From an uncultured bacterium (lineage in GTDB: Bacteria > Omnitrophota > Omnitrophia > Omnitrophales > Aquincolibacteriaceae): a DNA stretch of 64,000 nt. How positions within the stretch are numbered: position 1 is the first letter of the stretch; each line of letters starts with the position of its first letter. Shown one piece after another: positions 36,735 to 57,702 of the stretch. The DNA is taken from NCBI GenBank assembly GCA_964434115.1, contig CAYSSX010000003.1, positions 12,554-76,553 of the forward strand, read 5' to 3'. The position numbers and the translations under genes were made by a program. The notes beneath the pieces are model-generated. The model searched no databases. It had not been told where the DNA came from and was given only the letters and a program-made list of their open reading frames with translations.

Positions 36735-36807
36735 GAGCCCGTAGCTCAGGTGGTAGAGCACATCCCTTTTAAGGATGGTGTCGATGGTTCGAATCCATCC
36801 GGGCTCA
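36735..36807 (+). tRNA. tRNA-Lys (anticodon UUU)
   Basis: A manual cloverleaf fits: acceptor GAGCCCG/CGGGCTC, D-arm GCTC-AGGTGGTA-GAGC, anticodon stem CATCC/GGATG with loop CTTTTAA (anticodon TTT), T-arm GATGG-TTCGAAT-CCATC and discriminator A. Confidence 0.85.
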
Positions 36808-36938
36808 CAAAAGTAAAACCCAACCCAGTGAGGGTTGGGTTTTTTTTTGCCTGAAAAGTGGTGGATTCGAACAGGAGTAGCGGCGCCCAAGAAAAAGGAG
36901 CACCGCCGGTGCGACTTCCATGCGACGGTACGGGGGGC
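36789..36938 (+). repeat. Direct repeat copy 1 (about 150 bp) comprising the last 19 nt of tRNA-Lys, the terminator and about 90 bp downstream
   Basis: It is nearly identical to 36995..37144, with 2-3 mismatches at an offset of 206 bp. Confidence 0.85.
36817..36849 (+). terminator. Rho-independent terminator after tRNA-Lys
   Basis: AACCCAACCC-agtga-GGGTTGGGTT is followed by TTTTTTTTT. The element is duplicated at 37023..37055 inside repeat copy 2. Confidence 0.7.
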
Positions 36939-36994: not shown

Positions 36995-37144
36995 TCGAAT
37001 CCATCCGGGCTCACAAAAGTAAAACCCAACCCAGTGAGGGTTGGGTTTTTTTTTGCCTGAAAAGTGGTGGATTCGAACAGGAGTAGCGGCGCCCAAGAAA
37101 AAGGAGCACCGCCGGTGCGACTTCCATGCGGCGGTAAGGGGGGA
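36995..37144 (+). repeat. Direct repeat copy 2 (duplicated tRNA-Lys 3' end and terminator, att-like)
   Basis: tcgaatccatccgggctcacaaaagtaaaacccaacccagtgagggttgggttttttttt...cttccatgcggcggtaagggggg repeats copy 1. Confidence 0.85.
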
Positions 37145-37460: not shown

Positions 37461-40400
37461 ATGTCGCAAACTGACTGTATGGCTATTCTAGGCGCACGAA
37501 AGTGCGCGGCGGTAACATTGTTCTTTTTCGGCTTTCAGACAGTCGCTAGCTCTGCGCCTGCTGAGACGCTTTTACCTGCCGCCTCTCAAATTCAAATCCA
37601 AGAAAAAATCCCCAACTTTACTCCTCAGGAGATTGCCGGATACCTCCGGGAAATCCCTTCCGAACTTGGCAGTTTGCGTGAAAGCTTCATTCCTGGAAAT
37701 GCTGACGCTGAAAACGGGACGGCTGAGAAACTTCCGATGCCGGTTGTTTTTCATGTTCAGGACGCACATGCAAATCTTGAGGCGCAGGCGAGAATAAAAG
37801 AAATCCTGGAATGGGTTCGGAAAATGTCGAAAGACCATGGCGTTCAAGGGCCTGTTGTCGTGGCGCTGGAGGGAAGCGCCGGGGAACTTCATCCAGAGTA
37901 CCTTGATTTATTTCCGGAATATCCGGAGGCGAATGAAGCTTTTGTCCGGGATCTCAAAGACAAAGGCGAGATCACGGGAAGCGGTCTTTTCTTGTGGGAG
38001 CAGTATAAAGAAAAAAAATCGCACCCGGAAAACGACTCGGAAAATACCGGAAACATTGTGTTTTGGGGCGCTGAAAATCCGGAGCTTTACCGGCGTAATT
38101 TGAATCAGTTTCGAAGCCTTTTGATGAAACGCAAGGAGATTGATGCGTTTCTCCAGCCTTATCAAGCCCAGCTTGCCATAGCTCAATCGCGTATTCTTAA
38201 CCCGCAGCTTCGGGATTTTTTGAAAGACAGTGATAACCCCGAGACTCTTGCCCTGGCAGTTCTGAAGCACGCCAAGCCAACACTGGGTATTGATCTTTCC
38301 GAGCGGATCGAGCAGATCCGTTTCCCTAATCTTGCGCGTTTTGCCTACCTCCGTGAGCTTGAGCCGCTCCTCGACTCAGAACTGTCCCGCATGGATTGGC
38401 AGTCGCTGAAAAAGGGGTTTGAAAAGGATGGGATTCCCGAGGAGATGATCGCGAGGTTTGAACAGCTTTTTTCTCCTTCGGATGAAACGGGTGTCTCCTT
38501 CCGGAAAACAGTTGAAGAGATTTTACAGCGTTCCAATTTTTCCGCATCCCGCTTCCGTGATTACCCTCATTTGGCACAATGGGTTTCCTACAAATTACTC
38601 AGCCAGGAAATAGAGTCTTCGGATTTTGTCGCCGAGCTGGAACGGCTCAAGCAGGCGGTGATGACGAAATTGGCCGTGCGCAAGCAGGAAAAAGATTTTC
38701 TGAGTGTGCACAGTGACTTTTCGCTTTTTCAAAAGGTGCTTCATCTCGAAGTGACGCGCAGTGAGTATGCGGAAGCGTTGAAAACTGGAGGCCGTCTTCA
38801 GGCCGGTGAATTCAGCAAGCGCTTGGGCGAACTTCTTGAGCGGGATCGTGAGTTTGAGGAGCTCGGCAAAAATGCACGCAATAACGAGGCGGCTCTTCAA
38901 GAGGTCTTTAAGAAGGCTCTTGGATTCTACGAAGGTGCAGGAAGCCGCGATCTTGAAATTTTGGAGAATGCGCTTAGCTTTTATGACAAGCAAGCCAGGG
39001 CTCAGGTCAGTTTGCAGGAAGGCGCGCTGTCAAAGCCCGGAGTTCTGGTGCTTGTGACAGGAGGTTTTCATTCCGAGGGTGTGACACGTTACCTTAAGGA
39101 TCAAGGGATTGCTCACCTCGTGGTCGTTCCGAGGATTTCAAAAATCGAAACAGAAAATCTTTATTTCAAAGTCATGCGCCGTGAGAATTCCGACATGTCC
39201 GCTTATTTTGACAAAAACCCCCTGAACAAACAGGAGTCTCTTTTCCTTCGCGGACTCGTTGAAAAAGCGGCCCCGGAACTCACTCAAAAATACGGCGTTT
39301 CGAGCGCGGAAATCCCGCAGTTATTGGAGCAAGTCATTCACCGGCATCCGGTGCTTTCTGAAAAACTGGAAACCGCTGTGTTTCCCGGTGAAGGCAAACC
39401 CTTTGTCCGGATTAGTGTCACAGATCCCGCGAAGAAAGCCGTTCGAACCTCGGCTCAAAGTGTTGGGGAAGTGGACCTTCTTACTTCGGCAGGAAAGGGC
39501 CAGGCCTCTTATGCTTATTTGGCAGAGCAGGAATTCGACCCGAGCCTTGTTACAACGGTGACAGTGACGCCGAGCTTAAGCGGTCATTCCGCCGTTGAAA
39601 AAGCGCCGCTCAAAGGCGGTCTGTTGATGCAAAACCTGGGAAGCCTTGAAGTGACCGCGGGGCCGATTGATGCGGCTAATTTAAAAATTCTTAGATCCGC
39701 CGCCGATCAAATGCGTAATTTCAGCGGGATCATGAGCGCGACCCAGGCGGGGCCGAATTCTCTTATTCTGCCCCAGGCTGGAGTGCGGTCGGAGCTTCGA
39801 ACGATTCCGCAGGGATCCGAGAAGAAAGCGGTGGCAGAAATATCGCTCGATAAGATGACGGCAAATCAGGAGGAAATTAACCGGATCGTTGAAAACCATG
39901 ACCTGATTTATGTGAAGGCGGACATCCAGGATACTTTGACCTATGCGGAGTATATGAAAAAGTTTGAACCGTATATCACGGCGATTGGGAGTGCGCTAAA
40001 AACCCTTCGGCAAAAGGAAAAGCTGGGCGGGCGTGACAATTCGCATAAAGTCTTTATCATGAAAACCTGGTCGGAAGTGGGAAGCACTCAAAAGTTTTTT
40101 GATGACATCAAATGGTTCCGGGAACCGACACCGGAAGAAGGCGACAACGATTACTTTTTTGACGTTGTTTTTCAACCCGATTTTTCCTACCGGAGCGAGA
40201 GCGGAAAGGATGTCGAGGACCAAATCCTTTTTGGGGTTCGGAACCTTGGCGTTCCGAGCGGGGATCTCGAAACAGCCCGGCAGGAGAGGACGCTTAATCT
40301 TTTGCGGAAAAATTTTGATAACCCGGATTTTATGGGTGCTGCCAGCGCGGAACAAACGAAGAATGATTTGTTTCTTTACCTGGCGGCGAAGCTCGCGCAC

Positions 40401-43400
40401 TTTAATGACTTAGCCAAGGTGTCAGAGCGTTATGGTGCGGACCTTAGCGTGGTGGCTTATGGCGCGGGGCTTGATAAACGAATCCGCAAACTTTTCACCA
40501 ACCCTTCTTTAGGTTTCGGCGGACGTCTCGCCCAGTTTTTGGAGTGGGTCAGGGAAGAGAGGCTGGAAGAAGTTCTGGCAGCTCTTGAAGCCCGTCCGGA
40601 TTTCTTTACGGAGCGTGAAAAACAGGATACCAAGCAGAAGAAACTGGAAATTATTGAAAGACGCCTTTCGGACAGTGTGTCGATGCTCCGTGAAATTGCT
40701 GAGAACCCGGACAGCGACATCACGGTGAAAGATATTCTGGATAAATTGCCGCCTATCCTGCATTTCCTTTTCGAGCTGGAAACGGTTCTCGATATCAACA
40801 AACGGAATCTGCAGGATTTTTCTGACAAGATTTCAGCGTATGTCGGTGACCTCAAGGGAAAGAAAGCGGCGCTTATTGGCGTGGGGTACCGGGAAGGGGA
40901 CACCCGGGTTACAAAATCTCCGGCCAAGCGGATTATCCGGCAGCTTGTGGCCGCGGGAGTGACCGAGTTTTACGTCTCGGATCCGCTCGCGCGGCAATCG
41001 CTTAAAGAATGGATCGAGGCCATCAGAAAAAACCCGCATGATTCGATGGGGAAAATTCTCAAAGACCGCCGTGTTCGCTTTTATGGCGTGGATGATGGAA
41101 CCCCCGATCTTGATCTTTACACAGCCTCTGCGAATTCCGACTTCGTGGTGATTCCCACAGATGCCAACTCCGATTTGAAGAATTTGGACCTCCCAAGACT
41201 TAAACAGAGTCTGGGGGATAAATTCCTTTTTGACGGAATTAACTTTTTTGGTCTCCGGGCGAACGGAGAAACAATTTATTCTTTAGAGGCCCTTCGGGGC
41301 GCGGGTATCCGCTATGTCAGCGTGGGCCGTCCGCCCTTGAATTTTTCCAGCGATTACGCACTTGTAGACAGCCGCGTTATTGGTGACGATTATGAACGCG
41401 GCGATGCTCAGCTCGCAGCAAAAGCCGTTGAAGAGTATCAGGCCTATCTCTTATCTCTGGAAACAGACGATGAGCGGAGAAAGAAACTGGAAGAGATTTT
41501 CAGAACACCGCAATTAGACCAGCGTGAAGCGAACGCTATTCCTGTCACTCAAAAGAAGGTTGCCGTGATTGGCGGCGGTTACGTGGGATTGACTACGGGG
41601 GCCAACCTGGCCGATCTCGGAAATGATGTGACCGTTCTCGATATTCCGCAGAGGAAGCGCGCGATGGACGCGTTGACCAGTGAAGCCACGGAAGTTCCTA
41701 TTCATGAGCCCGGTCTGCGCGACCTCATTATTAAAGGTAAGGAAGCCGGCAGGATACGGTTTCAAACCCTTCCCGCGGAGTATGAAAAAGGTGTGCGTGA
41801 AGCGAGCATTGTTTACCTTGCCGTGGGAACCCCTCAGCAGGACAACGGCGCTCAGGACCCCGCTTATATCAATGGTGCTATGCGTGATATCGCGGCCATT
41901 ATCAAACGCCAAGCCTCGGAAACGAGCAGAGAGGCAGCCTTTAAAACCATTGTGATCAAATCGACCGTGACTCCCCGGGTATTCGAAGACGCGGTAAAAA
42001 TTTTGGCGCAGGAGTTCGGCCTCAAGCCAGGGATTGATTACGGCTTTGTCAGTAATCCGGAGTTTTTGAGAGAAGGGCAAGCGATCAAGGACATTACCAC
42101 GGACCTTGACCGGACCGTTCTGGGGTTTTACTCGGGAATGCCGCAGGAAGCCCGCAGGCGAGTCGAAAAAGATCTTTTGGAACTCTGGTATCCGCTCATG
42201 CTGCGCACCCCTCACTCTGTTCTGCTGACCGATACGGCAACCTCTACTTTAATCAAATACGCGGCCAATGCGTTTCTCGCGGTGTCCATCACCACGGCGA
42301 ATGTGATGGCCCAGGATGCCGCGCTTGAAATTGAAGGTTCCAACTTCAAGGAAATCGCTCCGAGACTGCGCAGAGACCAGCGGGTTGGAGCGAATGCCTT
42401 CCTGAGCGAGGGATGCGGGTACGGCGGATCCTGTTTTCCTAAGGATGTCCGTGCGGTGAACTATCTTTCCGATGAACAAGCCGGCCGTTCGCTTTTGATG
42501 ATTGTTCTTGCCGATCAATTGAACCAATATTTCAAAACCGCTGAGGTTAAGCGGCTGATTGAACAGCTTCGCGGGACCAAGGCGATTGGGACGAAGGCGA
42601 TTCTTCAGGGCAAAGTCATCGCTCTTCTTGGAATGGCTTTCAAAGCTGAAACCGACGATATGAGAGAAGCGCCAAGCGCGCACGTTCTTTATGAGCTTTT
42701 GAAATTGGATGCCCAGCAAGTCAGGATCGATGACCCGATTTTCAGAACACCGGATGCCCCCCGGAAAGAAGTGATTATCAATAATTATCTGGGAGAGCTT
42801 TACAAGCATTTCAAACACGATGTGGATTTTGAGAGAGCCTTTGACGTCTATCTTAGATCCGGGGCTTTGGAAGATCAGACGGTTCAGCGTCAACTGTTCG
42901 CCAGGCTCCGCTTCAACCCGGATGTCCAAAAGCAATTGAGAGAAAGAATCAGTGTTGATTACGATGTGGATCTTGATGAAGCCGCTTTCCGGAAAAACTA
43001 TGGCATCTATTTTGATCCAAGTAATCCCAAAGATCCATGGGATGATCAAGCCGCCCATCTTGATGTCCGCCCGTTGATTTATGGATTTCAAGGTTTGTTG
43101 AAGACCAACCGCATCGACAGCTCCTCCCTTAAGGAGTTTTACTTCCGTGAGGTTTTCTTTAACCTCAAATACCAGGTCACGAACAGGGTGGTTTTTGTGA
43201 ATCAGGCCGAGGAAGCTCTTTCTTTTGAAGCTTCTGCCGGCAGCGGAAAACGTCCCGCGGATGCCGCACTTTTGATTACGGATTGGAGCGAGTACCGGAA
43301 TTTGGACTATTCAAGTTTTTCAGGACAGCTTTTGATTGATACCCGCAATACCCTTTATGCACGAGCCCCGCAGCTGACATCAAGCCTGGGAATCAACTTA

Positions 43401-44372
43401 ATCGGTCCCGGCCGCCGCACGCCGGCGCTGGGATCCATCCGTTCTGAACTGCGCTTGGCGGAAACAGCCTCGGTTTTTGAAACCCTCGCTGCCTCGGATG
43501 CTGCTAATCCGGTGAGCACGGTCCAGTTCCGGGAAAGGGTTTCGGAATTGCCTCGCCCCGGATCTTCGAGCGTGGCGGAGTTTCTTGAAATTCACCCGGA
43601 CTTCAAACCCAGGGATCAGGTGGTGGATGCTGTAGCCGCATCGTTTTTGCCGGAAGATGTACTGCATACCGATGACCCGAGTTCTATCGAGTATGTTCAT
43701 CTGCGTCTCTCGGAACCGTCCAAGGTTTCCGAGGAAGAACCGCTTGTTCTAAAAGAAGCCCGTGCCGCTTTGGGAAAATACGGCTGGCTTTTGGATCAGG
43801 CAAAAACCCCGGGACAGATTATTCTTCCGCTGGAGCAGGATCAGTCCGGTGATGAGGATCAGTTGAATGACAAGCTGTTCCGGGTTGCGGTCGTTTTGGC
43901 TGCCGCGGACCCGGGAAATCATTTTGCTTTTCTTGTCGATGGAACTCCTCAGCAGGCCCGGGCACAGGCATCCCGTATTGCAGGCCGGCAAAGCGAACTT
44001 AAAATTCCGGCAGCCCGAATTCTCGAACAGTTCAAATTTGTGCCTACGGATGGAAGTTCAGCGGGGTACATCCGGGCGGTTAAACAGCTTTATTCGAAGA
44101 ATAAAGAGGTGGATTCGGCGGTCGTCGGGAAGCGGCTGGATTGGCTGAGCGATCTCGAGTATATCCCGCGTATGCATAGAATTTTCAACGAACGTCTTGA
44201 TGACAAGACCGCTATTCTTGTCACGGCGGCCCTTTTGCGGCAATTGAGCGATCAATACGATGTGGTCAGGATGGACGATCTTCTCAAAAAATTTGATATT
44301 AATCTTGATGAACTGGTTGAGAACGTGGCGCGTATGATCCAGGTCATCAACCATCTTGCGACCCAAGCTTAA
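37461..44372 (+). CDS. Giant multidomain protein 2 (2303 aa). It has an N-terminal hydrophobic anchor, the shared two-His N-module, an extra UDP-binding (UDPGDH-C-like) domain and a complete UDP-glucose/GDP-mannose dehydrogenase
   Basis: Uninterrupted 6912-nt ORF. N-module motifs are QDAH at 37758..37769 and GGFH at 39060..39071. The dehydrogenase motifs are VAVIGGGYVGLTTG, NPEFLREGQA, GCGYGGSCFPKD (Cys codon 42432..42434), IALLGMAFKAETDDMREAP and ITDWSEYRN. Confidence 0.8.
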   Translation: MSQTDCMAILGARKCAAVTLFFFGFQTVASSAPAETLLPAASQIQIQEKIPNFTPQEIAGYLREIPSELGSLRESFIPGNADAENGTAEKLPMPVVFHVQDAHANLEAQARIKEILEWVRKMSKDHGVQGPVVVALEGSAGELHPEYLDLFPEYPEANEAFVRDLKDKGEITGSGLFLWEQYKEKKSHPENDSENTGNIVFWGAENPELYRRNLNQFRSLLMKRKEIDAFLQPYQAQLAIAQSRILNPQLRDFLKDSDNPETLALAVLKHAKPTLGIDLSERIEQIRFPNLARFAYLRELEPLLDSELSRMDWQSLKKGFEKDGIPEEMIARFEQLFSPSDETGVSFRKTVEEILQRSNFSASRFRDYPHLAQWVSYKLLSQEIESSDFVAELERLKQAVMTKLAVRKQEKDFLSVHSDFSLFQKVLHLEVTRSEYAEALKTGGRLQAGEFSKRLGELLERDREFEELGKNARNNEAALQEVFKKALGFYEGAGSRDLEILENALSFYDKQARAQVSLQEGALSKPGVLVLVTGGFHSEGVTRYLKDQGIAHLVVVPRISKIETENLYFKVMRRENSDMSAYFDKNPLNKQESLFLRGLVEKAAPELTQKYGVSSAEIPQLLEQVIHRHPVLSEKLETAVFPGEGKPFVRISVTDPAKKAVRTSAQSVGEVDLLTSAGKGQASYAYLAEQEFDPSLVTTVTVTPSLSGHSAVEKAPLKGGLLMQNLGSLEVTAGPIDAANLKILRSAADQMRNFSGIMSATQAGPNSLILPQAGVRSELRTIPQGSEKKAVAEISLDKMTANQEEINRIVENHDLIYVKADIQDTLTYAEYMKKFEPYITAIGSALKTLRQKEKLGGRDNSHKVFIMKTWSEVGSTQKFFDDIKWFREPTPEEGDNDYFFDVVFQPDFSYRSESGKDVEDQILFGVRNLGVPSGDLETARQERTLNLLRKNFDNPDFMGAASAEQTKNDLFLYLAAKLAHFNDLAKVSERYGADLSVVAYGAGLDKRIRKLFTNPSLGFGGRLAQFLEWVREERLEEVLAALEARPDFFTEREKQDTKQKKLEIIERRLSDSVSMLREIAENPDSDITVKDILDKLPPILHFLFELETVLDINKRNLQDFSDKISAYVGDLKGKKAALIGVGYREGDTRVTKSPAKRIIRQLVAAGVTEFYVSDPLARQSLKEWIEAIRKNPHDSMGKILKDRRVRFYGVDDGTPDLDLYTASANSDFVVIPTDANSDLKNLDLPRLKQSLGDKFLFDGINFFGLRANGETIYSLEALRGAGIRYVSVGRPPLNFSSDYALVDSRVIGDDYERGDAQLAAKAVEEYQAYLLSLETDDERRKKLEEIFRTPQLDQREANAIPVTQKKVAVIGGGYVGLTTGANLADLGNDVTVLDIPQRKRAMDALTSEATEVPIHEPGLRDLIIKGKEAGRIRFQTLPAEYEKGVREASIVYLAVGTPQQDNGAQDPAYINGAMRDIAAIIKRQASETSREAAFKTIVIKSTVTPRVFEDAVKILAQEFGLKPGIDYGFVSNPEFLREGQAIKDITTDLDRTVLGFYSGMPQEARRRVEKDLLELWYPLMLRTPHSVLLTDTATSTLIKYAANAFLAVSITTANVMAQDAALEIEGSNFKEIAPRLRRDQRVGANAFLSEGCGYGGSCFPKDVRAVNYLSDEQAGRSLLMIVLADQLNQYFKTAEVKRLIEQLRGTKAIGTKAILQGKVIALLGMAFKAETDDMREAPSAHVLYELLKLDAQQVRIDDPIFRTPDAPRKEVIINNYLGELYKHFKHDVDFERAFDVYLRSGALEDQTVQRQLFARLRFNPDVQKQLRERISVDYDVDLDEAAFRKNYGIYFDPSNPKDPWDDQAAHLDVRPLIYGFQGLLKTNRIDSSSLKEFYFREVFFNLKYQVTNRVVFVNQAEEALSFEASAGSGKRPADAALLITDWSEYRNLDYSSFSGQLLIDTRNTLYARAPQLTSSLGINLIGPGRRTPALGSIRSELRLAETASVFETLAASDAANPVSTVQFRERVSELPRPGSSSVAEFLEIHPDFKPRDQVVDAVAASFLPEDVLHTDDPSSIEYVHLRLSEPSKVSEEEPLVLKEARAALGKYGWLLDQAKTPGQIILPLEQDQSGDEDQLNDKLFRVAVVLAAADPGNHFAFLVDGTPQQARAQASRIAGRQSELKIPAARILEQFKFVPTDGSSAGYIRAVKQLYSKNKEVDSAVVGKRLDWLSDLEYIPRMHRIFNERLDDKTAILVTAALLRQLSDQYDVVRMDDLLKKFDINLDELVENVARMIQVINHLATQA
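37758..39071 (+). other. Shared N-terminal module of giant 2 (between the QDAH and GGFH motifs)
   Basis: VVFHVQDAHANLEAQ ... VVVALEGSAGELHPEYLDLFPEYPEA ... VLVLVTGGFHSEGVTRYL. GGFH falls at residue 534-537, the same position as in giant 3. Confidence 0.6.
40855..41180 (+). other. Additional UDP-glucose dehydrogenase C-terminal-like (UDP-binding) domain in giant 2
   Basis: KGKKAALIGVGYREGDTRVTKSPAKRIIRQLVAAGVTEFYVSDP...DFVVIPTD follows the pattern VAVLGLAFKxxTDDxRESPA..II..L...GA.V..YDP...AD.VVI.T. Confidence 0.45.
41551..43370 (+). other. UDP-glucose/GDP-mannose 6-dehydrogenase domain of giant 2 (the UDP-binding subdomain has a long insertion)
   Basis: The NAD-binding GGGYVG, the central NPEFLREG, the catalytic GGSCFPKD, the C-terminal FKAETDDMREAP and the final ADAALLITDWSEYRNLDYSSFSGQLLIDTRN are all present. 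Confidence 0.75.
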
Positions 44373-44527
44373 GCGAGCCCTTTTGGGGTTTGTAAAATTT
44401 TTTCCAAGTCCTTTTGCAGTAAGCCTATAAAGTTACCCCCCTGGTTTGACCCAAGGCATTTCATCAGGTATCTTTCTATCAGACTTTTTAAAAGTTCCCA
44501 ACACGCGTAAAACCTTCGCGGAGAGCT

Positions 44528-47500: not shown

Positions 47501-50500
47501 GGAAAAAGCCTGGGATCTTTCACTGTGGATCGCCGCTTCTGGGACAGCATGATGCGTTCTTACCGCCAGGAATTGAATGAGGAAAATCCCCTTGAGCAGT
47601 CAAAGAACCGGGCGGATACGGACGGTGATTGGTGGATCCCTCTCACGAGCCTGGAGTTTGTTCTGAAGAATGCCTCGACGGATGTTTCGCAGTTTAAGAA
47701 TGCAAAGGCTCTGAAAGAATATCTTGTGAAAGAGGGGCTTGACCAGCCCGAGTTTACGGACCGGGTCATCCGCCTTTATCTGAGCTCACGGAAAAACTCT
47801 TCTCAGCCTTTTATGAAGGTCATCAATGCCGGAGCCAAATCTCTTTGGTGGGATTTTGGAAATGTCGGAGTCGAGGAAGGAACCACAGAAGGAATCTTCA
47901 GGCGAAACATCCTTGTTCTTCTTCAGGATACAGCGGAAGGCCGTTTGGCGCGGCAGTTCTGGGGAGTGCCAGAACTTTTCACGGGAACATTGCCCGGAAC
48001 GCAGGTTCAGGTTCAGAATTCCATCATCACAGCTTCTGAAATTTTGCCCGGATCGACCGGCGCTATTCAAAATTCCGTCATTTCAGGGGTCCGGGGAGCT
48101 TTCAACTTTGAAGTCTCCGACAGTTTCCTTTACGGGATTACGAATGAAAGCGCTTCCCCGCAATCACCACTTAGCGTCAAGTCCGAACATGGGATTGGCT
48201 ATCAGTTAAAGCTTTCCGCGCCGCTTGCTATTTCCTCGGGACACATTCTGGCAGGCGTTCCAGTTCTTGGAGTAGACGTTGTTTTGAGAACAACTGAAGC
48301 GTCAGATGCAAAACAACTGTGGCTCCGGGCTATGTATGAAAATCTATTAGCTTTTGGATCCGCGGCTTATCTTATCCGTCTGGCTGAAGCTAACCGCAGC
48401 GCCCAAATCGCAGGCGTCTCTGTTTCGAACCTTGAATATCGCGGCTTCTTTGAGCATCAGGGGATGCAGCATGCCGTGATCGAAGGGCGTGACGCTTCAG
48501 ATCAACCGGTTATCGCAGTCCTGCACGTATCTTCTGTTGATCAGATAACAGACGCAGAACTTCATGAGGCCATTCTTTCGCCGGGCATCGAAGGCGCAAT
48601 CTTTTCCGGGAAACTCTATGACAGTTCCAGAGAAATTCTTCTCCTTACTTACGCGGCACGATCCGAATTGCGCGGTCTTGAGATGGATTCTTTGGCGCCT
48701 GAAATCCAGACCTTATTAGCGGCTACCGCCGATGAAGCGGCCTTGAAACAGGAGTTTCTGAGGCTTGTGTATGAAAAGCTTTCGCCGGAAAAAAGCGCGC
48801 AGGCTGCCGCTGTTTTTAAGGCCGTCCGCGCAGACAAACTCCCCTATGAGTACCCGCAGTTTTTTGAGGGGGTGATAAGTGCCCGGACCCAGGCATCCGG
48901 CCAAACATCTTTCAGAGCCTATTTGGAAACGAATCTTTCTGCTAACCCTGCCGAAATCAGCGCTTTTGCGGCGGATATTCTCCGGGCCTTTTCAAAAACC
49001 GCAGATTTTGAAAGGGCTACGACGGCTTTTTTCCGGTTTGATCAGACTTCGACCATTAGGTTTGTGGACCAGCTCATTGAAGAGAAAACGCTTACAGGCG
49101 ACAAATCCGTTACGGTAAAAAGCTTGGGAACTTCCAGCGGAGAAGAGCCTTATACGCTGGCCATGATTGTTTATTATGGATTGAAAAAATATTACGAGGC
49201 TCACCAGCGGGAAATATCGTCAAAAGAAGGGATTGGGACCTTCCAGGCTTGGGCAGAGAGCTGGAATGTTTCAATTGAAGCCTATGATTATGACCTGGCG
49301 AATTTAGTCCTCGTTCAAAACGGTTTGTTTGATTTTCTTTACGATGACCCTATGGGCGGATTTGGTTACAACGATGAAGACAATTATCTCAATGAAGCGT
49401 GGCTGTATTCAAAGGACAGAAATACCGGGGCTCTTGGGCCTGCCGAAACATGGCGGTATTCTCCAGAAACGGAAGCTGGAGCCTCTTTCCCGTTTCGCTC
49501 AACGCTTAGCAAACGGTTGAAATCGGGAGAAAAGATCGGCTTTAAATTTTCTGCCGTCGATTTGCTGAAAAAATGGATGAAGCCTGTTTATGTTGATTTG
49601 CGGGGACCCGCTGACGCTGAAGTTCTGAGTCTTACCCAAGCGAATATTATTGTTGTGAGTTTTCTGCGGGGCGCGGCATATCTCGATTCGAAAGATGATT
49701 ATCTTGTTCAGGCTATAGAAAAAAGCCGGGATGCAAAACACAGCAGTCTTGCCCTTGCCGGATCTGCGATCGTGAAGCCCGCTCAGCGTTCGGAGCTCAG
49801 AATAAGCACAGAGACGGAGAGCCTTGACAGTACACTTTTGAACGCCGTTGGAAAATTGGATATCGAAACATCCGAAGGAGTTAAAACGCTAAAACTGCTT
49901 GTCAGCCGGATCTTGAAATCGGCATTCACCCGGACACTGTCGGCTGAGCAGCGGACAAAAATAGCAGATCTGTCAGGTTTAACCGAGGACAGCGAACAGT
50001 TGGAAGTCCTTCAGGACATTCTTGACGATCCCGAAGTTCTGCAGGTTTTCAGAGATGATCTTGCTGCTGATGATTCGGGCGATGTTCGTTTTGACGCGGC
50101 CGCCCAAACCTTGAGCTATACACCCGGATATGCATTGGCCGTACAGGCTGATATTGACGAAGCGCTGCGCACCTTTGAAACGGGCAGTTATGTCGATGTT
50201 CAGGGGGCTATGATAAAACTTCTCCGGCAGGTGAGCCTGGGATTTGCGGAGGAGGTCCGGAAGAGTCTGAAACAGAGTTTGGTTCGTGAGTTTGAACAGT
50301 GGCGGATTTTGATCAAAGTCTTGGAAACCGAGATTGGTGCCAGATCTGAACTTCGTTCATCAGAAAAAACCTATTCGGAAGCTCTCCAATTTACATCCCG
50401 TCCTGTGGTGACGGTTTCCGGTGATTCCGCAAAAGTTGAAATTACTTTCCGGACAGATGCCGCCACGCTTGAAAAATCAGAAATGTTTTTTCATTGGGGA

Positions 50501-53500
50501 GACTATACGCAAGGCCCGCTGGATTGGACGGATCACGAAATTCTAAATTGGGACATCGAAGATCTCGGCGGCGGTATTTATAAAGCATCAAAGGTGATTC
50601 AGCCCGGCCGTATCGGTGAGTTCGGAGTCACAGCCTACGCGCAGAACCGCGTGACGGGAGAGCGGGTTTGGCAGGGAAAAAACCGAGGTGATGATGCTGT
50701 GATGGGGATTGACCTTCTTCCGAAAACCGTCCTTGAAGACCTCCGGCGTAATCTTAAAAAACAGGAAGCCATTCAGGAGATCCGGCAGAGCCTTATTGAC
50801 ACGAATCCGTATGACAGCTTCATCACTGTGATCCACCGTCTCGTGGTTGATGAAGAAATGCGGGGCATGGGAAAAATTGTTTACGACGCAGTCAAAGATG
50901 TCCCGCGCTTCCGAACGGTTCTTTCTCAGATTCACAGCCGTCTGAAAGAGGACAGTAAAGTCTGGAATCCGTTTTTCAAGGAAAGGGCGCTTCCTGCTTT
51001 GCATGCATTAGAAACGCTCGGCATTGGAGAGATTGTTTTTGTAGCTCCTGAAGGTCCTCATGCGATTGCCGGCGGTTTGGCCAAGGTCATTGAGGGCCTT
51101 GCCAAGGCTTTGTCAGAAAGCGGTGTCTCAGTCACGGTCATCACGCCTCTCTATGAAGACAATCAAGGTAAGAAGCATGAATCCGCAGAAGCTTTGATCG
51201 AAAAAGGTTTCATGACAGAAAGCGGGGAAAGAGTTCCCATTAAGGCCGACCCCGTCGCTGAGATCGGAATGACCTTTGGCCCCATTTATGATTCGGGAAC
51301 GCACATGACCGGTTTGAGCGATGACAAAATCCGGACCTTTCAAAGAACAGTTCAAAGCCGGGTCTATGAAGCCAAAGCAGAAGGCGTCCGGTACCTTTTC
51401 CTCAGACACCCGCGCCTTGCTGACAAGCTTTACGCAAAAGTCCCGTCTTCCGAAGAGTTAAGGCGCGCTGTCTTTCTGTCCCGGGCCGCGCTTGAAGTGG
51501 TTCAGAACAGGGCGCTTGGCGTTGACCCGCAGCTCATCATTTCCAATGACTGGGTCACCGGGTTAATCCCGACGTTCCTTCAACGTGATCCGCGTTACTC
51601 CCAAGACCCCCTTCTCAAGGATGTCGGCACGGTTCATATGATTCACAATTACGGGCGCGACTATCAGGGGCGTGTTTTTACGAATCAATATGGGTTGGAT
51701 CTCTGGCCGCTTCTTGGACTCAAGCACGACTTCTACAAAGATGTTGCAGACCCCAATGATGACCGGTTCCTCAACATCACTTCAAGCGCCATGGAGCACG
51801 TCAACCGTTCCATTCTGACGGTGAGCCGTCCGTATGCCGAGCAGATGCTCACCCCTGAAGCAGGGGAAGGTCTCGACACTATTCTCAATCCGCTGAAAGA
51901 AATTCTGTTTGGAATCAGTAATGGAATTGATGAAGCGGCGGCCCGGAAAACATTCTGGAAAAAGGGTGAAGAGGCCCGTCAGGCCCTCGAACTTCCAGGG
52001 CTTATGGAAGACTATTCCGATGAAGGCTTTTTGAAAAATCTTTGGGACTATAAGAATTCGGCGCTTGTTAAAACTCAGAAAGACTTCGGTTTTACCGAAG
52101 ACCCAGATGCGATCTTTTTGTCGATGATCGGACGCGTTGCCGAGCAGAAAGGCATTCAGCTTTTGACGGATACGGAAAATGGAGTGACGGTTCTGGAAAG
52201 CCTTCTCCAGATGAATCCGAAAGTTCAGATTTTTCTGGGCGGGCCTGTTGCAGAAGGGGATGGGACGGCGGAGCGGCTGCGGGATTTGACCCGTGAACTT
52301 GAGCAGAAATATCCGGGCAGAATCCGGGGGGAATACACCTTCATTCCGGGAGCCACAACCCTTCAGGTCATGCTGGCAAGCCGATTCTTTTTAATGCCTT
52401 CCCGCTATGAGCCAGGGGGCATTACGCAGCTGGAGTCGTTGGCGTCGGGAACGCCTGTGGTGGCAAGAAATGTGGGGGGGATTGCCGCAACCTTGATTAA
52501 TTATTTTGATCATCCCGATAATGGCAACGGCTTTTTGTTTACAGATTTTACCGGCGCAGCCCTTCGAGGAACGCTCGCAGCGGCTTTTGATGCAGCGGCT
52601 GGCGACCCCGGCCTTCTTAAGACCTTGTCCAACCGTGCTGCCAATGCTCAAAACGACTGGCATGACCGGATTCCTCAATATCTTTCTCTGCTTCAACTCG
52701 GGGCCGGCGTGATCCGTCCTTCGGAAACGGCATTTCAGACAGATTATGCTTATCTCTCTGACCGGACAGGCATTCTTAACGACCTTCGCCCCCGCAACCG
52801 CGCAGAATTGAGATCGGATAAAGGGAACCCCTATATACTGGAAGAGAATGTCACCCGTGGATTTGCATTTCTTGATGAAATGCATGGGGGCCGCGTGAGC
52901 ACGGCGATTTCAAACGCGGTAAAACGCGCAGCGCCAGGAACTAAACCCAGAGTGCTCCTCTTAGAGGTCGGACGCGGAGTTGTGCCTGCCGAATTGATAA
53001 ACCAGAGAGACGAAAAGGGTGAAAAAAAATGGCCCGATGTTGAGTTCTTTTCGTCCGGTGCGGAAGACCTGCTTTTTTCTGCAGAAGAACTGGAGAAATT
53101 CATGGGCAATATCAGCCCTGAGGAGGCTGCGGTCATCGCGGATACTATCAGAGGCCGTTTCGCCGCTGCGGATCTTGACTATGATCTTGGCGCTTTTGAG
53201 AATTCCACATTTGATGTCATTGTCATGACGCAGGCTGTGATGGAGTACATGAGAAATATCCCCGGAGTGATTGACCGTCTTTCCAGAAAATTAAATATCG
53301 GAGGAGAGTTCATAACCGATCTGGACATCATGAGTATTAAGGATCCCGAGACGCAGGAAAGAGTGGATACGAAAGCTTTCTTTGAGTCGTTGAATCCAGG
53401 TTATGAGATCTATGGAATTACCCTGAAAGGCACACCGCTGCCGTACGACTTTTTTGCAGGACTTCGTTTCACGCGCCTGTCAGAAGACATTCCCAAAATT

Positions 53501-56500
53501 CCGCTGGATGCGACACAGAGTTCAAAAACCTATACAGTGCAGCGCTCTGAGCTGCGCGCGGAACAAGCCAGCGCTCCCCAAAACGTGCGTTTGAACGGCG
53601 TTTCACCTGAAATGCTGAAAGTAGAAGCCGGCGAGCTGGTTTTTTGGCGTCCGTCCCAGCGTCAAATGAACACGTCTCTGAAGAGGCCTTATGATGATGA
53701 AAAGGTCGTGGTCCAGAAAATACACAATGAGCTTGAAACTTTGGATACCCTTTGGATGCAGATTATGGGCGAGCTTCAAGAGCGGAGCTATTCCCCTGAT
53801 GCGCTGGATATTGTGGAGCTAATGGTTCGACGTGCGATGGAGGTGATACGGACCCAGGAGATCAAAGCGGAAGTGGCGCTCCGAACGGTGAAAGAGGAAA
53901 TGCTGGCGGCCGCTAAAGAAGAATCCGGTGATGATCTGGATTTAACGACGGCAGCAGGAATCGTAGATAAGAGGCTTCTCCCCGCTTTGGAAAACCGTGA
54001 AGAGCTTGTGTATGTTGAAAGCGGTCTCGATGAAGAGGCGAGGAAAAAACTCTTCATTGATCGAGAGAGAGACCAAGTACTCGCGAAAGTTTTTGAAATC
54101 ATTCTTCGACTGCCGTATGGGCTGCACATTTCCCCCGAGGATTACGGAGAAGATGAAAAAGACAGGGTCAAAAAGCTGATCCATACGGAACGCCAAATAG
54201 CGGACGGACGGCGCGCCATGCTCACCAATGACCTACTGCCGGAGATCCTGAAAGTTGTTGAACAGGGGAAGAGGGCCCAGTTTGCAATTAATCAGGTCAT
54301 CAAAAAGAAGGTCGAGCCGGGCTTGGAGCGCTTAAAAAAGATGGTGGACGACAGCCGTAAAACAGGCGGAGATACCCTTGTCGGTTCAAGACTCATCAAA
54401 GTTTTTGAAGAACAGAGATCTCTCCTGGAAGGGATTCGCGACGAATTTGACACGTATGATTTTATTTATGATTCGTCAGACCTGCCTGCGGAAAAGGAAA
54501 AGAAGCGGCGCGGCGAGCTTGAACGGTTTGAAGCCGTTTACAGGGACACCCTGGTTTTTTTCCCAAATCCCTCTGAGGATCTAAAAGCGTTTCTGGAAGA
54601 ACTCAGAACCCTGGTTACGTATGAAATCCGGGAGCGCGGCCGCACGCTGGACTATGGTATCGCGAAATTTTTCAGTCAAAAGGGATCGGAGCGGTATAAA
54701 GATATTCCCACTGAGCAGCTTGATTTCCTGATGCGGTTTTACAACGTCAGCCAGTATGGCATCGTGAAGCGGAAAGGCGACAAGAACCTTGTGGTTTTCG
54801 CGGAGAAGATCCGGCATGAAGCCGATTTTGCCGAGCTGATGATGAGGAACAAGGGGCGCGGAAGAGTGGTCTCAATTGCGACGCTCAAACGGTTCGCTCC
54901 GGATGACGCGCCCGGCCGGGTACCGCACTGGTTTATTTTTTCAAAAGACCAGGGCATTGTTCCGATTGAAGCACTCGACTTTGAAGATCGTAAAATGGAT
55001 TTCAAGGACCTCAAAGACGGAGACTTCGTTCTGGTGGACGGCAAAAAAGGAATCGCTGTCGTGAACCCGAACTCGGAAACTCAGCGCGATATGATCGAAC
55101 GCGGCAAGGTTTACAAATACCTGGATGAGTATTTCCTTCCGCGCGTGTCTCTGCCGGCTCTTGTCAATGGACGACCGTTCTACTTTTGGGCGGATGAATC
55201 ACGTTTGGATTACCTGAAGCGCGACGGCGATCAGCCGAGATTCCAGAAATTCGGAGCCCGGGGGATCGGACTGCTCCGGCTTGAGCAGTTGATGGGAGAA
55301 ATGGACCGTGCGGGCATTGAGTTCGACGAAATGCGCCTCAGCCTTGCAATCGAAGAAATGCTTCTGCCGTTTTCCGATCCTGAAGCGCCGTTGACGATCC
55401 GACTTTATGATGTTCAAGGAGATAAACGCCCGAAGTTTTTTGTGGAAGGAAAAAGCGAGGAACAAATCGAGGGTATTCTCAAGACGCATTCCAACATTCG
55501 CTTTTACCTGGACGAACGGGAGGAATTCCGCAATCAGCGTGAATTCGGAAAAATGCAGATCAAGGCGATTTACCGGGCTTATCTCCGCGCGCAGAAGAAC
55601 AACTTACAGATTCTGCTCCCAAATCTGCTGAAAGTGGAAGAGGTAGAAGCGTTGAAGAAGCTTTTTGATGAAGCGCGCCAGGAGCTTATCCGTGAACTTG
55701 AAGAAGAAGCTCTGATTCAGGTAGAAGCGGCCGTGGTGCGCCGGCACGGGTGGATCACAGATATTAATGCTTTGGAAACCGAAGCCCTTGAGAAGGGGCT
55801 CGACTGGTTCAGGAATCAGCTTCTAAGTAAGCCCGAAATGAAGCCGCACGAGGAGCAGTTCGGGCAAGAGTCCGACGCTGATTTTGCCAAGGTGGCTGGC
55901 CCTGATTTTGGAAAGAAAGTCACTCTGAGTTTGAGCAAAATCCGGTTTGGATACATGTTCGAAGAGGTTTCGGCTGTTGAGCAGCGCAGCGACATTATGA
56001 AGGCTGTCCTTGCGCAGCATCAGGTTGCGGAGGCCAAGCCTTTTTTTGGAATCGGTACGAATGACCTTCAGAAGTCAGTACTTGAGTCCCGCGAAGAAAC
56101 CAATGATGAGATGAACAAGCTGCACCCCGGACTTGTGAAGGCTATAGCGGATCTTGAGGGGACTGCGCGTGAGCTAGGACTTCATCTGACCGTTGAAGGC
56201 CAGTGGGGCGGATCCGCCCGCATGCTGTTTGCCGCCATGGCGCTTGAAATCTATCACGGGCGTAAGATGCAGCTCGTTGCGCCCACCAATAAAATCCCTG
56301 AACTTCTTGAAATGATCCGGATGACTGAAGCCGCGGATCTGGAACACGTTTTTGACTTGGGATCCAGCTATAAGCCGGCATCCATGAAAACATTGATTGA
56401 CCGGATGGAAGCCGGGGATCTTCCTGAGCTGGATGAGATGAACCTTGTCGCGACCATGCTGCAAGACCGTATTGAGGCGAAGATTGTGGCCAGTTCTGAT

Positions 56501-57499
56501 TTTCAGACATTCCGGAATTTGAAGGAAAGGCAGGAACTCATGGCGCGTAATGAACTTCGCCTGGCAGAGGCCCCGGATGTTTCCTCGACGCAGGGATGGA
56601 AACAAACATTGGCTGAAACCATAAGCCCGGTGTTTTCTCTCCGTTTGCCCGGCCTTTTTGGTTCTGACGTTCAGGCTTCTGTGATTGATGCCTCCCGTAA
56701 TTTGGGAGGGGTTTATTCCGTGGCGGAAGTTGAAAAACGTCTTCCGGATCAAGTGGCCGTGGAAGGCGATCTTTCCGGAACAGGACAGCTTTCCCGTGAG
56801 CAGGCGGCTCAGAAGTGGGTTGCCCGGCAAGTGATGCAGGAGAATGGGCTCTTTGAGCGTTCGGGGGTTGAGGATGAAGCCCTTCAGAAAATGCTGTCAG
56901 AAATTCCGGAACTCCCCATGCGCGCAGCCGAGGATCAGGGAGCCGCGGGATTGTCCGCGGAAGTGCACATTCAAATGCCTGCAGTCCCTCAAGATCTGAC
57001 AGGCTTTTTGCCCGTGCTGGCCGTAGTGGCTTCCGTGAACGGGGCCTTGCATTTGAATATGAGTTCCCTGGATGAAGCGGGCGCGAAAAAATTCGAAAGA
57101 CAGATTTTGGATCTGGCAGCCGAAAAACGGATTCAGTTAAAACGCGGACAATTTCAGGTGAGGGCCGGGGCAGGTGCCGCCCTTTTCGCTTCTGTTCCCC
57201 AATCCCGGTTGAATGCCTCCGACCATCACGCCTTGCTTGGGGAAGAAGATGTTTTTAACAGCTTTCCGAAACGGCGGGGGTTGAATCTTTTCAGCCTCGA
57301 TCCGGCTGCGGTTTCTGATCCGGGTCTTTTTGCATCCACCGTGATCACGGTTCTTCAGGCCATGGCGCTTGGAAAACAGCCGGAGGATTATTTCCACGTC
57401 CTGAATCCCAAGAGCCTTTTCCCGCAGAATTTCCAGGCCGTGGTGCAGGCGGTTTCGACCTATCTCGCGGCCCAGGCACGCATCGCTGCCGCGGCTTAA
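44528..57499 (+). CDS. Giant multidomain protein 3 (4323 aa). It has an N-terminal hydrophobic anchor, the shared two-His N-module, an FPGT/fucokinase-like nucleotidyltransferase, a CheR-like methyltransferase, a CBM-like module, a GT5 glycogen/starch-synthase-like glycosyltransferase, a class-I methyltransferase and a PEP-utilising enzyme (phosphohistidine plus PEP-binding barrel)
   Basis: Uninterrupted 12972-nt ORF starting 155 bp after giant 2. N-module motifs are QDAH at 44792..44803 and GGFH at 46136..46147. The domain motifs are listed in the sub-features below. Confidence 0.8.
   Translation: [4323 protein letters not shown]
44792..46147 (+). other. Shared N-terminal module of giant 3
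   Basis: [15 protein letters not shown] ... [25 protein letters not shown] ... [18 protein letters not shown]. Confidence 0.6.
46793..48300 (+). other. Fucose-1-phosphate guanylyltransferase (FPGT)/fucokinase-family-like nucleotidyltransferase region with a hexapeptide-like tail
   Basis: [22 protein letters not shown]...[24 protein letters not shown] and [30 protein letters not shown] parallel the FPGT pattern W-D-VVITA..E.Q...Y..QL...DP.G..GSGGSTL.AL and IIHSGGYSQRLP. It is followed by a [29 protein letters not shown] beta-helix-like stretch. Confidence 0.45.
48900..49620 (+). other. CheR-like SAM-dependent methyltransferase domain
   Basis: [24 protein letters not shown] matches the CheR motif VWSAACSTGEEPYSIAM, and [16 protein letters not shown] matches the downstream CheR motif. 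Confidence 0.55.
50400..50700 (+). other. Putative carbohydrate-binding (CBM20/25/53-like) module preceding the GT5 domain
   Basis: [40 protein letters not shown] has the beta-sandwich pattern of a short V-x-F strand followed by a W/H-G-x-x-x-W aromatic cluster. The position mirrors the CBMs of starch synthase III. Confidence 0.3.
51040..52700 (+). other. GT5-type (glycogen/starch synthase-like) GT-B glycosyltransferase domain
   Basis: The N-terminal [41 protein letters not shown] matches the GlgA motif KTGGLADV. The C-terminal [37 protein letters not shown] matches the GlgA motif [33 protein letters not shown]. Confidence 0.7.
52940..53330 (+). other. Class-I SAM-dependent methyltransferase-like domain
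   Basis: [18 protein letters not shown] is motif I-like, [13 protein letters not shown] is motif II-like and [14 protein letters not shown] is motif III-like. Confidence 0.4.
54880..56260 (+). other. PEP-utilising enzyme module (mobile phosphohistidine domain plus TIM-barrel PEP-binding domain)
   Basis: [21 protein letters not shown] parallels [54 protein letters not shown] and [14 protein letters not shown] (the classic IGTNDLTQ motif) are all present. Confidence 0.65.
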
Positions 57500-57547: not shown

Positions 57548-57583
57548 ACCCCCTCTTATTCGGGCCCATTAGACCTCCTTTAT

Positions 57584-57658
57584 GTCCCCATCGTCTAGCT
57601 CGGCCTAGGACACTAGATTTTCATTCTAGCGACAGGGGTTCAAATCCCCTTGGGGACG
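57584..57658 (+). tRNA. tRNA-Glu (anticodon UUC)
   Basis: A manual cloverleaf fits: acceptor GTCCCCA/TGGGGAC, D-stem GTCT/GGAC, anticodon stem CTAGA/TCTAG with loop TTTTCAT (anticodon TTC), T-arm AGGGG-TTCAAAT-CCCCT and discriminator G. Confidence 0.85.
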
Positions 57659-57702
57659 TAATTTTTAATCAACAGCCTGTCGTAAACCGGCTGAGCAAGT
57701 TT

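Follow-up and report, generated by a model that had tools for sequence, protein, structure and literature searches.

Three giant genes, G1, G2 and G3, in a 64-kb stretch of DNA from an uncultured member of the Omnitrophota (contig CAYSSX010000003.1; the whole 64,000-nt stretch analysed is referred to here as the window) are built on a common chassis. This consists of a signal-like or anchor start, an N-terminal head module with a predicted TIKI fold, a variable set of modules and, in G2, G3 and many relatives, a tail of ~300 amino acids (aa) that ends in Ala. A short motif, R-[S/A]-E-[L/M/V/I]-R, marks the boundaries between head and cargo, between successive cargo modules and between cargo and tail in a clade of these genes. 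The reading favoured here, with a probability of about 0.4, is that the giants are polyproteins or modular chassis and that the motif is a processing site, which the TIKI-fold head may itself cut. The shared tail and the R-[SA]-E-x-R motif, which are the most informative features of the system, were absent from a preliminary description of this DNA, made by reading the sequence. The open reading frames (ORFs) themselves have the positions and lengths given there (window ORF list and translations):

797..8833, + strand, giant 1 (G1), 2678 aa, GTG start
37461..44372, + strand, giant 2 (G2), 2303 aa
44528..57499, + strand, giant 3 (G3), 4323 aa

In G1, a signal-like N-terminus and the head are followed by a region with three motifs, which includes a membrane-embedded cargo block, and by a divergent C-terminal segment; the true start is likely to be Met12 of the GTG-initiated ORF. 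G2 runs from a signal-like N-terminus through head, motif, UDP-glucose-dehydrogenase cargo and a second motif to the tail, and G3 has six motif-separated cargo modules between its own signal-like N-terminus and head on one side and its tail on the other. By eye, all three N-termini are Sec-signal-like, being K/R-rich, then hydrophobic, then AXA-like (797-916, 37461-37570 and 44528-44650).

The boundary motif

A six-frame count of R[SAN]ELR in the window gave 12 copies, all of which lie inside the three giants and none in other frames. The number expected from composition is 0.08, and the maximum reached in shuffled sequence was 2 (n=2000). The copies are as follows.

2648..2662, + strand, RSELR in G1, aa 618
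2960..2974, + strand, RAELR in G1, aa 722, start of the cargo block
8165..8179, + strand, RAELR in G1, aa 2457, 222 aa from the C-terminus
39786..39800, + strand, RSELR in G2, aa 776, head/cargo boundary
43440..43454, + strand, RSELR in G2, aa 1994, cargo/tail boundary
46685..46699, + strand, RAELR in G3, aa 720
48659..48673, + strand, RSELR in G3, aa 1378
49787..49801, + strand, RSELR in G3, aa 1754
50342..50356, + strand, RSELR in G3, aa 1939, after an unassigned 185-aa module
52799..52813, + strand, RAELR in G3, aa 2758
53543..53557, + strand, RSELR in G3, aa 3006
56546..56560, + strand, RNELR in G3, aa 4007, cargo/tail boundary

In the giants, these copies mark off a head, modules of enzyme size (104-1735 aa) and a final piece of 222-317 aa, and none of the copies falls inside a Pfam or NCBIfam domain match. 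The codons differ between all copies and vary freely, indicating that selection acts on the peptide and not on DNA or RNA. A role of the motif at the DNA level, as a recombination site or RNA signal, is ruled out by the same differences.

Each motif is retained in homologues of G2 and G3, where the surrounding linker is divergent or carries insertions and deletions; the copy at aa 776 of G2 is intact or nearly so in four homologues despite diverging flanks. Head loci were confirmed 293 times in species-representative genomes, several of them as tandem arrays like G2-G3, and the labels and counts given for loci refer to the 80 of these that were listed and fetched. At these 80 loci the wider pattern R[SAN]E[LMVI]R has 117 copies in 31 head-bearing ORFs, whereas the background of 2.2 million six-frame residues contains 51. 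Roughly half of these 51 fall within five further long ORFs on the + strand that adjoin head ORFs; three of the five have a family-type tail at the end, and three contain GGFH, one of the head motifs. Among 51 motif-clade proteins, RSELR, RSEVR and RSEMR exceed expectation 223-, 276- and 608-fold, respectively.

Compared with random positions, the flanks of the motif contain more Pro/Gly and disorder-promoting residues and fewer hydrophobic ones (P 1e-11 to 1e-18); for the downstream Pro/Gly enrichment taken alone, P is 4e-4. In the relative P0120, motifs at aa 663 and 1170 stand on either side of two hexokinase domains (aa 671-1167). P0023 (aa 692-1434) contains five and P0024 (aa 687-1269) four tandem units, nine in all and each 141-154 aa long; every unit opens with the motif, and most start RSEVRENRQPLAKPI. 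The units have receiver-type sequence (DD...D...KPF), and the motif has been copied along with the module. Doublets of the motif, 10-46 aa apart in one linker, are common (L025, at aa 2631/2642 and 3324/3335; L003, L009, L012 and others). In 45 of 68 motif-bearing proteins the last motif is 266-325 aa from the C-terminus, i.e. at the start of the tail. The proteins of the motif clade have a short conserved motif at their module junctions, as a self-processing polyprotein would.

The head and the tail

Alignment of the three translations confirms that the giants share an N-terminal module, as had been described, of ~500 aa and with invariant QDAH, EG and GGFH:

1049..2476, + strand, G1 head, aa 85-560; QDAH at 98, EGAEGEL at 129, RD at 464, GGFH at 489
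37728..39320, + strand, G2 head, aa 90-620; QDAH at 100, GGFH at 534
44750..46357, + strand, G3 head, aa 75-610; QDAH at 89, EGARGDL at 124, RD at 496, GGFH at 537

EGxxGEL/GDL is placed 31-37 residues past the block QDAH(A/V)xxEAQ. GGFH had been placed at residues 534-537 of both G2 and G3, which is exact for G2 (534) and three residues off for G3 (537), and about 435 residues past the first block, a distance that fits G2 (434) and G3 (448) but not G1 (391). By BLASTP, the heads of G2 and G3 are 32% identical over 586 aa (E 4e-67) and those of G1 and G2 25% identical over 477 aa (E 2e-17). Past about residue 640 all three sequences part ways, again as described.

No Pfam or NCBIfam model matches the head at threshold, and the preliminary description was right to place it outside the named families. 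A head profile retrieved 9,165 clusters at E <= 1e-3 and 5,851 at E <= 1e-30 from 1.84 billion representative proteins; a word-indexed homologue search returned just three and six head relatives. Among the 150 best matches, 149 are proteins of 487-7,839 aa whose head begins no later than about residue 65. The proposed architecture of a conserved head with a variable enzyme payload is thus family-wide, and it extends to a cargo-less member, P0001, at an orthologous locus (see below). Most of the 80 loci are labelled Omnitrophota or Omnitrophica, about one-quarter 'uncultured bacterium' and a few Planctomycetia or Deltaproteobacteria. Fourteen columns are invariant across 48 diverse heads (Q, D, H, E, Q, E, G, G, Y, R, GG, H and P), the key ones in G2 numbering being Q100, D101, H103, E107, Q109, E137, R496, G534, G535 and H537.

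The G2 head is predicted to be an alpha/beta core (~aa 90-224 and 482-574) interrupted by a ~260-aa helical insert, which measures ~260-300 aa across the family. The core was modelled with homologues from a spliced sequence from which the insert (aa 225-481) had been removed, giving a predicted local distance difference test score (pLDDT) of 86.4 and a predicted template-modelling score (pTM) of 0.85. The best structural matches of this model are ChaN, HopBA1, erythromycin esterases, a TraB protein and RRSP, all of the TIKI superfamily, and the core has the central parallel beta-sheet with flanking helices of the TIKI fold. It also has a catalytic-type set of two His and two acidic residues: D12, H14, E48, R407, G445, G446 and H448 of the head are invariant in the 48 heads. 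In the model, D-x-H, E and GG-x-H each come just after a predicted strand (E6-11, E43-47 and E182-187), an arrangement like that of 'GSIH', 'VEAD' and 'GALH' in TraB/YbaP. In the work on RRSP, ChaN, HopBA1 and PMT are counted among the TIKI superfamily structures and a 2His/2Glu catalytic set is laid down (PMC6254334).

Sub-threshold matches to PF04187 (Cofac_haem_bdg, Tiki superfamily, ChaN) occur in 10 of the 48 heads (14-15 bits, where the cut-off is 27.7; lowest E 0.0028) and to PF01963 (TraB_PrgY_gumN) in two, and these weak matches pair the R...GGFH part of the head with the C-terminal GxxH part of the profiles. The head resembles the TIKI, TraB-PrgY-GumN, ChaN and erythromycin esterase proteins in its strand order (beta1-xxH, beta2-E, helix-R, beta-GxxH) and in its 2His/2-acid type of residue set. 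It differs from them in having D-x-H where others have E-x-H or GxxH, in the ~260-300-aa helical insert that splits its core, and in always standing at the N-terminus, as the head of a very long protein with many modules. The resemblance to TraB/GumN/Tiki, which had been offered as speculation, therefore holds for the fold and the catalytic-type residues, and the link to a well-characterised domain is solely a remote one at the level of the fold, which contributes a possible mechanism and does not make the shared head a trivial finding. It is concluded from the model that the head represents a new, unnamed TIKI-fold family with a hydrolase-type residue set, although the profile tests fail and the key model comes from a spliced sequence.

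At the other end of the giants, a hidden Markov model (HMM) of the tail matched 57 of 155 proteins, extending to the final residue in 49 and to within 50 residues of the end in the others. The C-terminal segments of the giants are as follows.

43455..44369, + strand, G2 tail, ~305 aa, ending ...NHLATQA; tail HMM E 2e-60
56561..57496, + strand, G3 tail, ~312 aa, at the extreme C-terminus, ending ...ARIAAAA; tail HMM E 9e-70
8180..8830, + strand, G1 C-terminal segment, not among the tail-HMM matches

P0001 (1087 aa) consists of a head, KSELR and a ~300-aa tail with no cargo; this tail and the C-terminal 310 aa of G2 share 37% identity. The P0001 gene follows frr and tRNA-Lys, the same placement as that of G2 in the window, which implies that cargo has been gained or lost between a fixed head and a fixed tail. 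The terminal Ala is present in 96% of 49 aligned tails (…ATQA, …KQAA, …RTAA, …AAAA) and may act as a signal recognized at the C-terminus, e.g. a degron or PDZ ligand. The tail is otherwise poorly conserved, with no invariant residues apart from this Ala and the preceding motif, and so is unlikely to be an enzyme; a catalytic tail was rejected on this basis.

Cargo and genomic setting

The following cargo was recognized in the giants.

3479..4021, + strand, G1 hydrophobic region, aa 895-1075, with HEWTH (HExxH) in a predicted membrane helix
40344..41249, + strand, G2 degenerate second UDP-glucose dehydrogenase copy (central and C-terminal domains), aa 962-1263
41553..42767, + strand, G2 intact UDP-glucose/nucleotide-sugar dehydrogenase, aa 1365-1769; PF03721, PF00984, PF03720; TIGR03026 E 4e-94, above cut-off
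46700..48658, + strand, G3 cargo 1, aa 725-1377, GxGSRxxPxT-like nucleotidyltransferase signature by reading
48674..49786, + strand, G3 cargo 2, CheR-like S-adenosylmethionine (SAM) methyltransferase segment; PF01739 E 2.6e-6 (isolated segment)
51029..52693, + strand, G3 cargo 4, glycogen/starch-synthase-like GT5+GT1, aa 2168-2722; PF08323 E 8e-36, PF00534 E 1e-11, TIGR02095 E 1e-61
52814..53542, + strand, G3 cargo 5, weakly class-I SAM methyltransferase-like; PF08242, PF07021, PF08241 E ~2e-3
53558..56545, + strand, G3 cargo 6, phosphoenolpyruvate (PEP)-utilising enzyme-like, ~1000 aa; PF02896 E 1e-18, TIGR01417 E 2e-14

Pfam and NCBIfam bear out the UDP-glucose dehydrogenase assigned earlier to G2, and likewise the GT5 enzyme, the PEP-utilising module (PEP-binding domain at aa 3572-3727) and the methyltransferases of G3, the last as two SAM-methyltransferase-like segments. 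Two further assignments fared less well. For the nucleotidyltransferase of G3 (aa 720-1377), neither profiles nor PDB sequences gave a match, only the signature being readable, and the 'GlmS-like' amidotransferase plus SIS of G1 is weak (Pfam SIS E 0.15; NCBIfam E 2e-4, well short of its cut-off; PDB sequence search negative).

In G2, no motif separates the intact dehydrogenase from the degenerate copy (PF00984 E 6e-10, PF03720 E 9e-7, isolated segment), and the pair may be an intramolecular pseudo-dimer of a normally dimeric enzyme. A hydropathy scan found internal hydrophobic helices in G1 only and none in G2 or G3; G1 has at least six (aa 901-1033 and 1885-1965). About 125 aa past HEWTH, directly behind the hydrophobic region, G1 contains CCGNYG, which to judge from its letters could be the N-terminal Cys of an Ntn-type amidotransferase, in which case a free N-terminus would be required. 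Neither the HEWTH nor the CCGNYG reading has profile support.

The cargo of 18 scanned relatives includes UDP-glucose dehydrogenase, GT5/GT1, hexokinase, UDPGP, PEP-utilising enzymes, CofD, receiver domains (Pfam; four of the 18), HATPase, FHA and CsrA. Among homologues, the amount of cargo ranges from zero, in P0001, to at least 20 motif-delimited segments.

The neighbours of the giants in the window are ordinary chromosomal genes (rpsB, pyrH, frr, truD, a Sua5-type gene and others). The G2-G3 pair is flanked by tRNA-Lys(UUU) upstream (36735-36808) and by tRNA-Glu(UUC) downstream (57583-57659, 84 nt past the G3 stop); the Sua5/TsaC-type gene is also downstream of G3. tRNA-Lys is also found upstream of a G2-type gene in contigs L081 and L001, which indicates conserved synteny and probably no recent island. 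Just upstream of G2 there is a direct repeat of 149 nt (36789-36937 and 36995-37143; 99% identical, spacing 206 nt), which includes the last ~20 nt of the tRNA-Lys gene together with its hairpin and T-run, and looks like an att-type remnant or a local duplication. Across the window (1-64000), a single 2-kb bin lacks positive GC skew, and cumulative skew rises near-monotonically. With all three giants on the + strand, this is consistent with a window that belongs to one replichore and has the giants on its leading strand. Two stand-alone metallopeptidase genes are also present in the window, one Peptidase_Mx-like (11856-12881, - strand) and one M48/HtpX-like (30406-31365, + strand).

Proposed processing and the alternatives to it

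A hydrolase-fold head, a junction motif in disordered linkers, motif doublets and a cargo that includes normally free units together make a polyprotein the simplest reading. In the favoured mechanism, the motif would be the recognition site of a site-specific endopeptidase, and the cut would probably fall after the second Arg, placing E at P3, a hydrophobic residue at P2 and R at P1. The cis-encoded head would be the most economical candidate for the protease, since Tiki and RRSP, both of the TIKI superfamily, are sequence-specific endopeptidases. Processing might then release sugar-nucleotide, glycogen and PEP-linked enzymes, together with regulators, at fixed stoichiometry from one gene, and the tail and signal-like start could serve in targeting, anchoring or turnover. 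That the chain is cut, which protease does so and at which bond are all inferred. Extended to a phylum-wide bacterial polyprotein system, in which the TIKI-fold head cuts its own chain at R-[S/A]-E-[L/M/V/I]-R and frees interchangeable cassettes from between a fixed head and tail, the proposal becomes rather doubtful.

Several observations weigh against processing by the head. The first acidic residue of the head set is Asp and not Glu; matches to PF01963, PF04187 and PF05139 were sub-threshold only, none being significant; and head and core profiles found nothing meaningful among PDB sequences. An hhalign comparison of the core with a YbaP/TraB alignment gave a probability of 2%, which is a weak test because that alignment is shallow (67-100% identity). 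The TIKI fold also includes non-peptidases: ChaN binds haem, the Ere proteins are esterases and PMT is without the catalytic set. Signal-like starts on strings of cytoplasm-type enzymes are hard to square with simple intracellular processing. The motif is carried by 60 of 65 HPEY-type heads and by 27 of 128 other heads, an association of head subtype with motif that speaks for the mechanism but is confounded by phylogeny. Finally, a sister clade with QDAH-C heads lacks the motif (87 of 89; present in two) yet keeps all the head invariants, so that catalysis by the head does not strictly depend on R-S-E-x-R.

In this sister clade, a search for enriched k-mers, both exact and gapped, found no equivalent of the punctuation motif, the sole enriched pattern being one HExxH per protein (36 of 61 proteins). 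About half of the instances of this mini-domain, '...HExxH(I/L)...', lie at aa 740-835, shortly past the head (within P0042-P0150), and it may be an alternative processing solution. The C-termini of the clade read ...ALRSL or ...VLWSV.

The strongest competitor, although unlikely, is an uncleaved tethered metabolon, in which the giants would be single membrane-anchored chains and the motif a hinge or docking peptide bound by the insert, the tail or a partner. Linker-like boundary sequence suits docking as well as cleavage, and both the tail and the helical insert lack catalytic-type invariants and so could be binding modules. The absence of a motif between the two dehydrogenase copies of G2 is as expected of a pseudo-dimer, and 94% of catalogued Omnitrophota giants have a signal peptide or transmembrane (TM) helices and are read in that catalogue as membrane-anchored multi-enzyme clusters. 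However, a docking motif would not be needed at each boundary, including right after the head and right before the tail, and doublets 10-46 aa apart are more like redundant cleavage sites. The head retains its full hydrolase-type residue set over thousands of clusters, and normally free small units, such as receiver domains and CsrA, are found as cargo.

It is less probable again that the polyprotein is cut by a trans-acting Arg-specific protease, with the head serving in esterase activity or cofactor binding, export quality control or anchor removal. The identical head residues of the motif-less sister clade and the non-peptidase members of the TIKI fold would be accommodated by this proposal, and factor Xa, an unrelated Arg-specific protease (IEGR), has a similar E at P3 and R at P1. 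However, no Arg-specific protease emerged as a candidate (the two metallopeptidase genes of the window, M48 and Peptidase_Mx, were not connected with the giants), the head is present in all family members examined, and head subtype tracks the motif.

Slightly more remote still is the idea of exported MARTX-like effector arrays, whose head and tail would deliver to a host or prey modules that are freed at the motifs and rewire host sugar metabolism. This would be in keeping with the Sec-signal-like starts of all three giants, with the description of Omnitrophota as host-dependent or predatory, and with the parallel to MARTX in conserved ends, variable middle and internal sites, the MARTX effector RRSP having a TIKI fold. 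Against it, Pfam and NCBIfam searches found no RTX repeats, C80 cysteine-protease or toxin domains, the cargo consists of ordinary anabolic enzymes and receiver domains, G1 has several internal TM helices, and the housekeeping context (rpsB, pyrH, frr, tRNA-Lys) is partly kept in two other contigs.

That the giants are an artefact, whether chimeric assemblies (a caveat of the preliminary description) or fused or decayed genes, is almost certainly wrong. Nothing was found in its favour, although split heads or N runs occur at some related loci in metagenome-assembled genomes (MAGs). The ORFs of the giants (2.3-4.3 kaa; 1 kaa, 1000 aa) are all intact and of even base composition, G3 is identical to the library protein P0004, the G2 head has an 82%-identical counterpart on another MAG contig, where tRNA-Lys again lies upstream, homologues share module order and motif positions, and the architecture recurs in thousands of homologues.

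Among known systems, the closest are the giant 'multi-enzyme metabolic cluster' proteins already described in Omnitrophota (Nielsen & Lui 2026, 10.64898/2026.06.07.730766; West-Roberts et al. 2023, 10.1101/2023.11.21.568195). They share with G1, G2 and G3 the phylum, the many unrelated enzyme domains on one chain with none dominating, the recurring cargo (starch-synthase GT5, GT1, hexokinase, methyltransferase, receiver and PEP/PPDK-type modules) and, to judge by eye, an N-terminus that resembles a signal peptide or TM anchor. They differ in size, the published catalogue beginning at 10 kaa, whereas the present giants have 2303, 2678 and 4323 aa and their relatives up to 7839 aa. Cleavage of such giants has been proposed earlier, with C39 or S8 peptidase domains as processors and the cleavage points stated to be unknown; in the 2023 study, the giants could not be segmented for structure prediction because cleavage points were lacking (10.1101/2023.11.21.568195). 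Term searches of both preprints found no mention of a TIKI-fold head, a shared tail or an inter-module motif, and full-text literature searches gave nothing relevant on the head, the tail, the motif or a link of TIKI/TraB to Omnitrophota. Giant multi-enzyme genes in Omnitrophota are thus known, and what is new is the chassis with its grammar of motif-bounded modules and the TIKI-fold family.

More distant parallels can be drawn with three other systems. MARTX toxins likewise have conserved ends and a variable module array, with sites recognized by their own protease domain, but those sites are Leu-based and not R-S-E-x-R; the giants are without RTX repeats and the C80 protease, and carry metabolic and regulatory cargo, not cytotoxic, in a chromosomal housekeeping context. 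Viral polyproteins also place several proteins in one ORF with a short motif at the junctions, and their proteases (picornavirus 3C, potyvirus NIa) are part of the polyprotein. The giants, in contrast, are a cellular bacterial family with interchangeable cargo, a candidate protease of another fold and putative cleavage. Polymorphic toxins combine a conserved N-terminal region with variable downstream modules in tandem gene arrays, and the preliminary description had compared the giants with them. The comparison is an analogy only: there are no toxin domains or tips and no sign of immunity genes or a dedicated secretion system, the cargo is of housekeeping type (sugar metabolism and signalling), and the variable part is internal, flanked by head and tail, and not C-terminal.

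Giant multi-enzyme ORFs are a signature of Omnitrophota, and whether they act as single proteins or as cut pieces is an explicit question in the field. The motif, enriched by two to three orders of magnitude, provides the first testable candidate cleavage sites for these giants, and its grammar makes processing accessible to tagged expression, active-site mutants and peptide substrates (e.g. PQAGVRSELRTIPQG), as well as giving a rule for the computational splitting of giants into modules. If processing does not occur, the motif would still represent a new docking or hinge element between the domains of thousands of proteins. If it does, the giants would be one of the rare instances in which cellular organisms express genes as polyproteins, in analogy to viruses, and would bring a new activity class to the TIKI superfamily as well as a natural 'fuse-and-cleave' toolkit. 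A self-cutting system, if real, would account for the use of giant genes by Omnitrophota.

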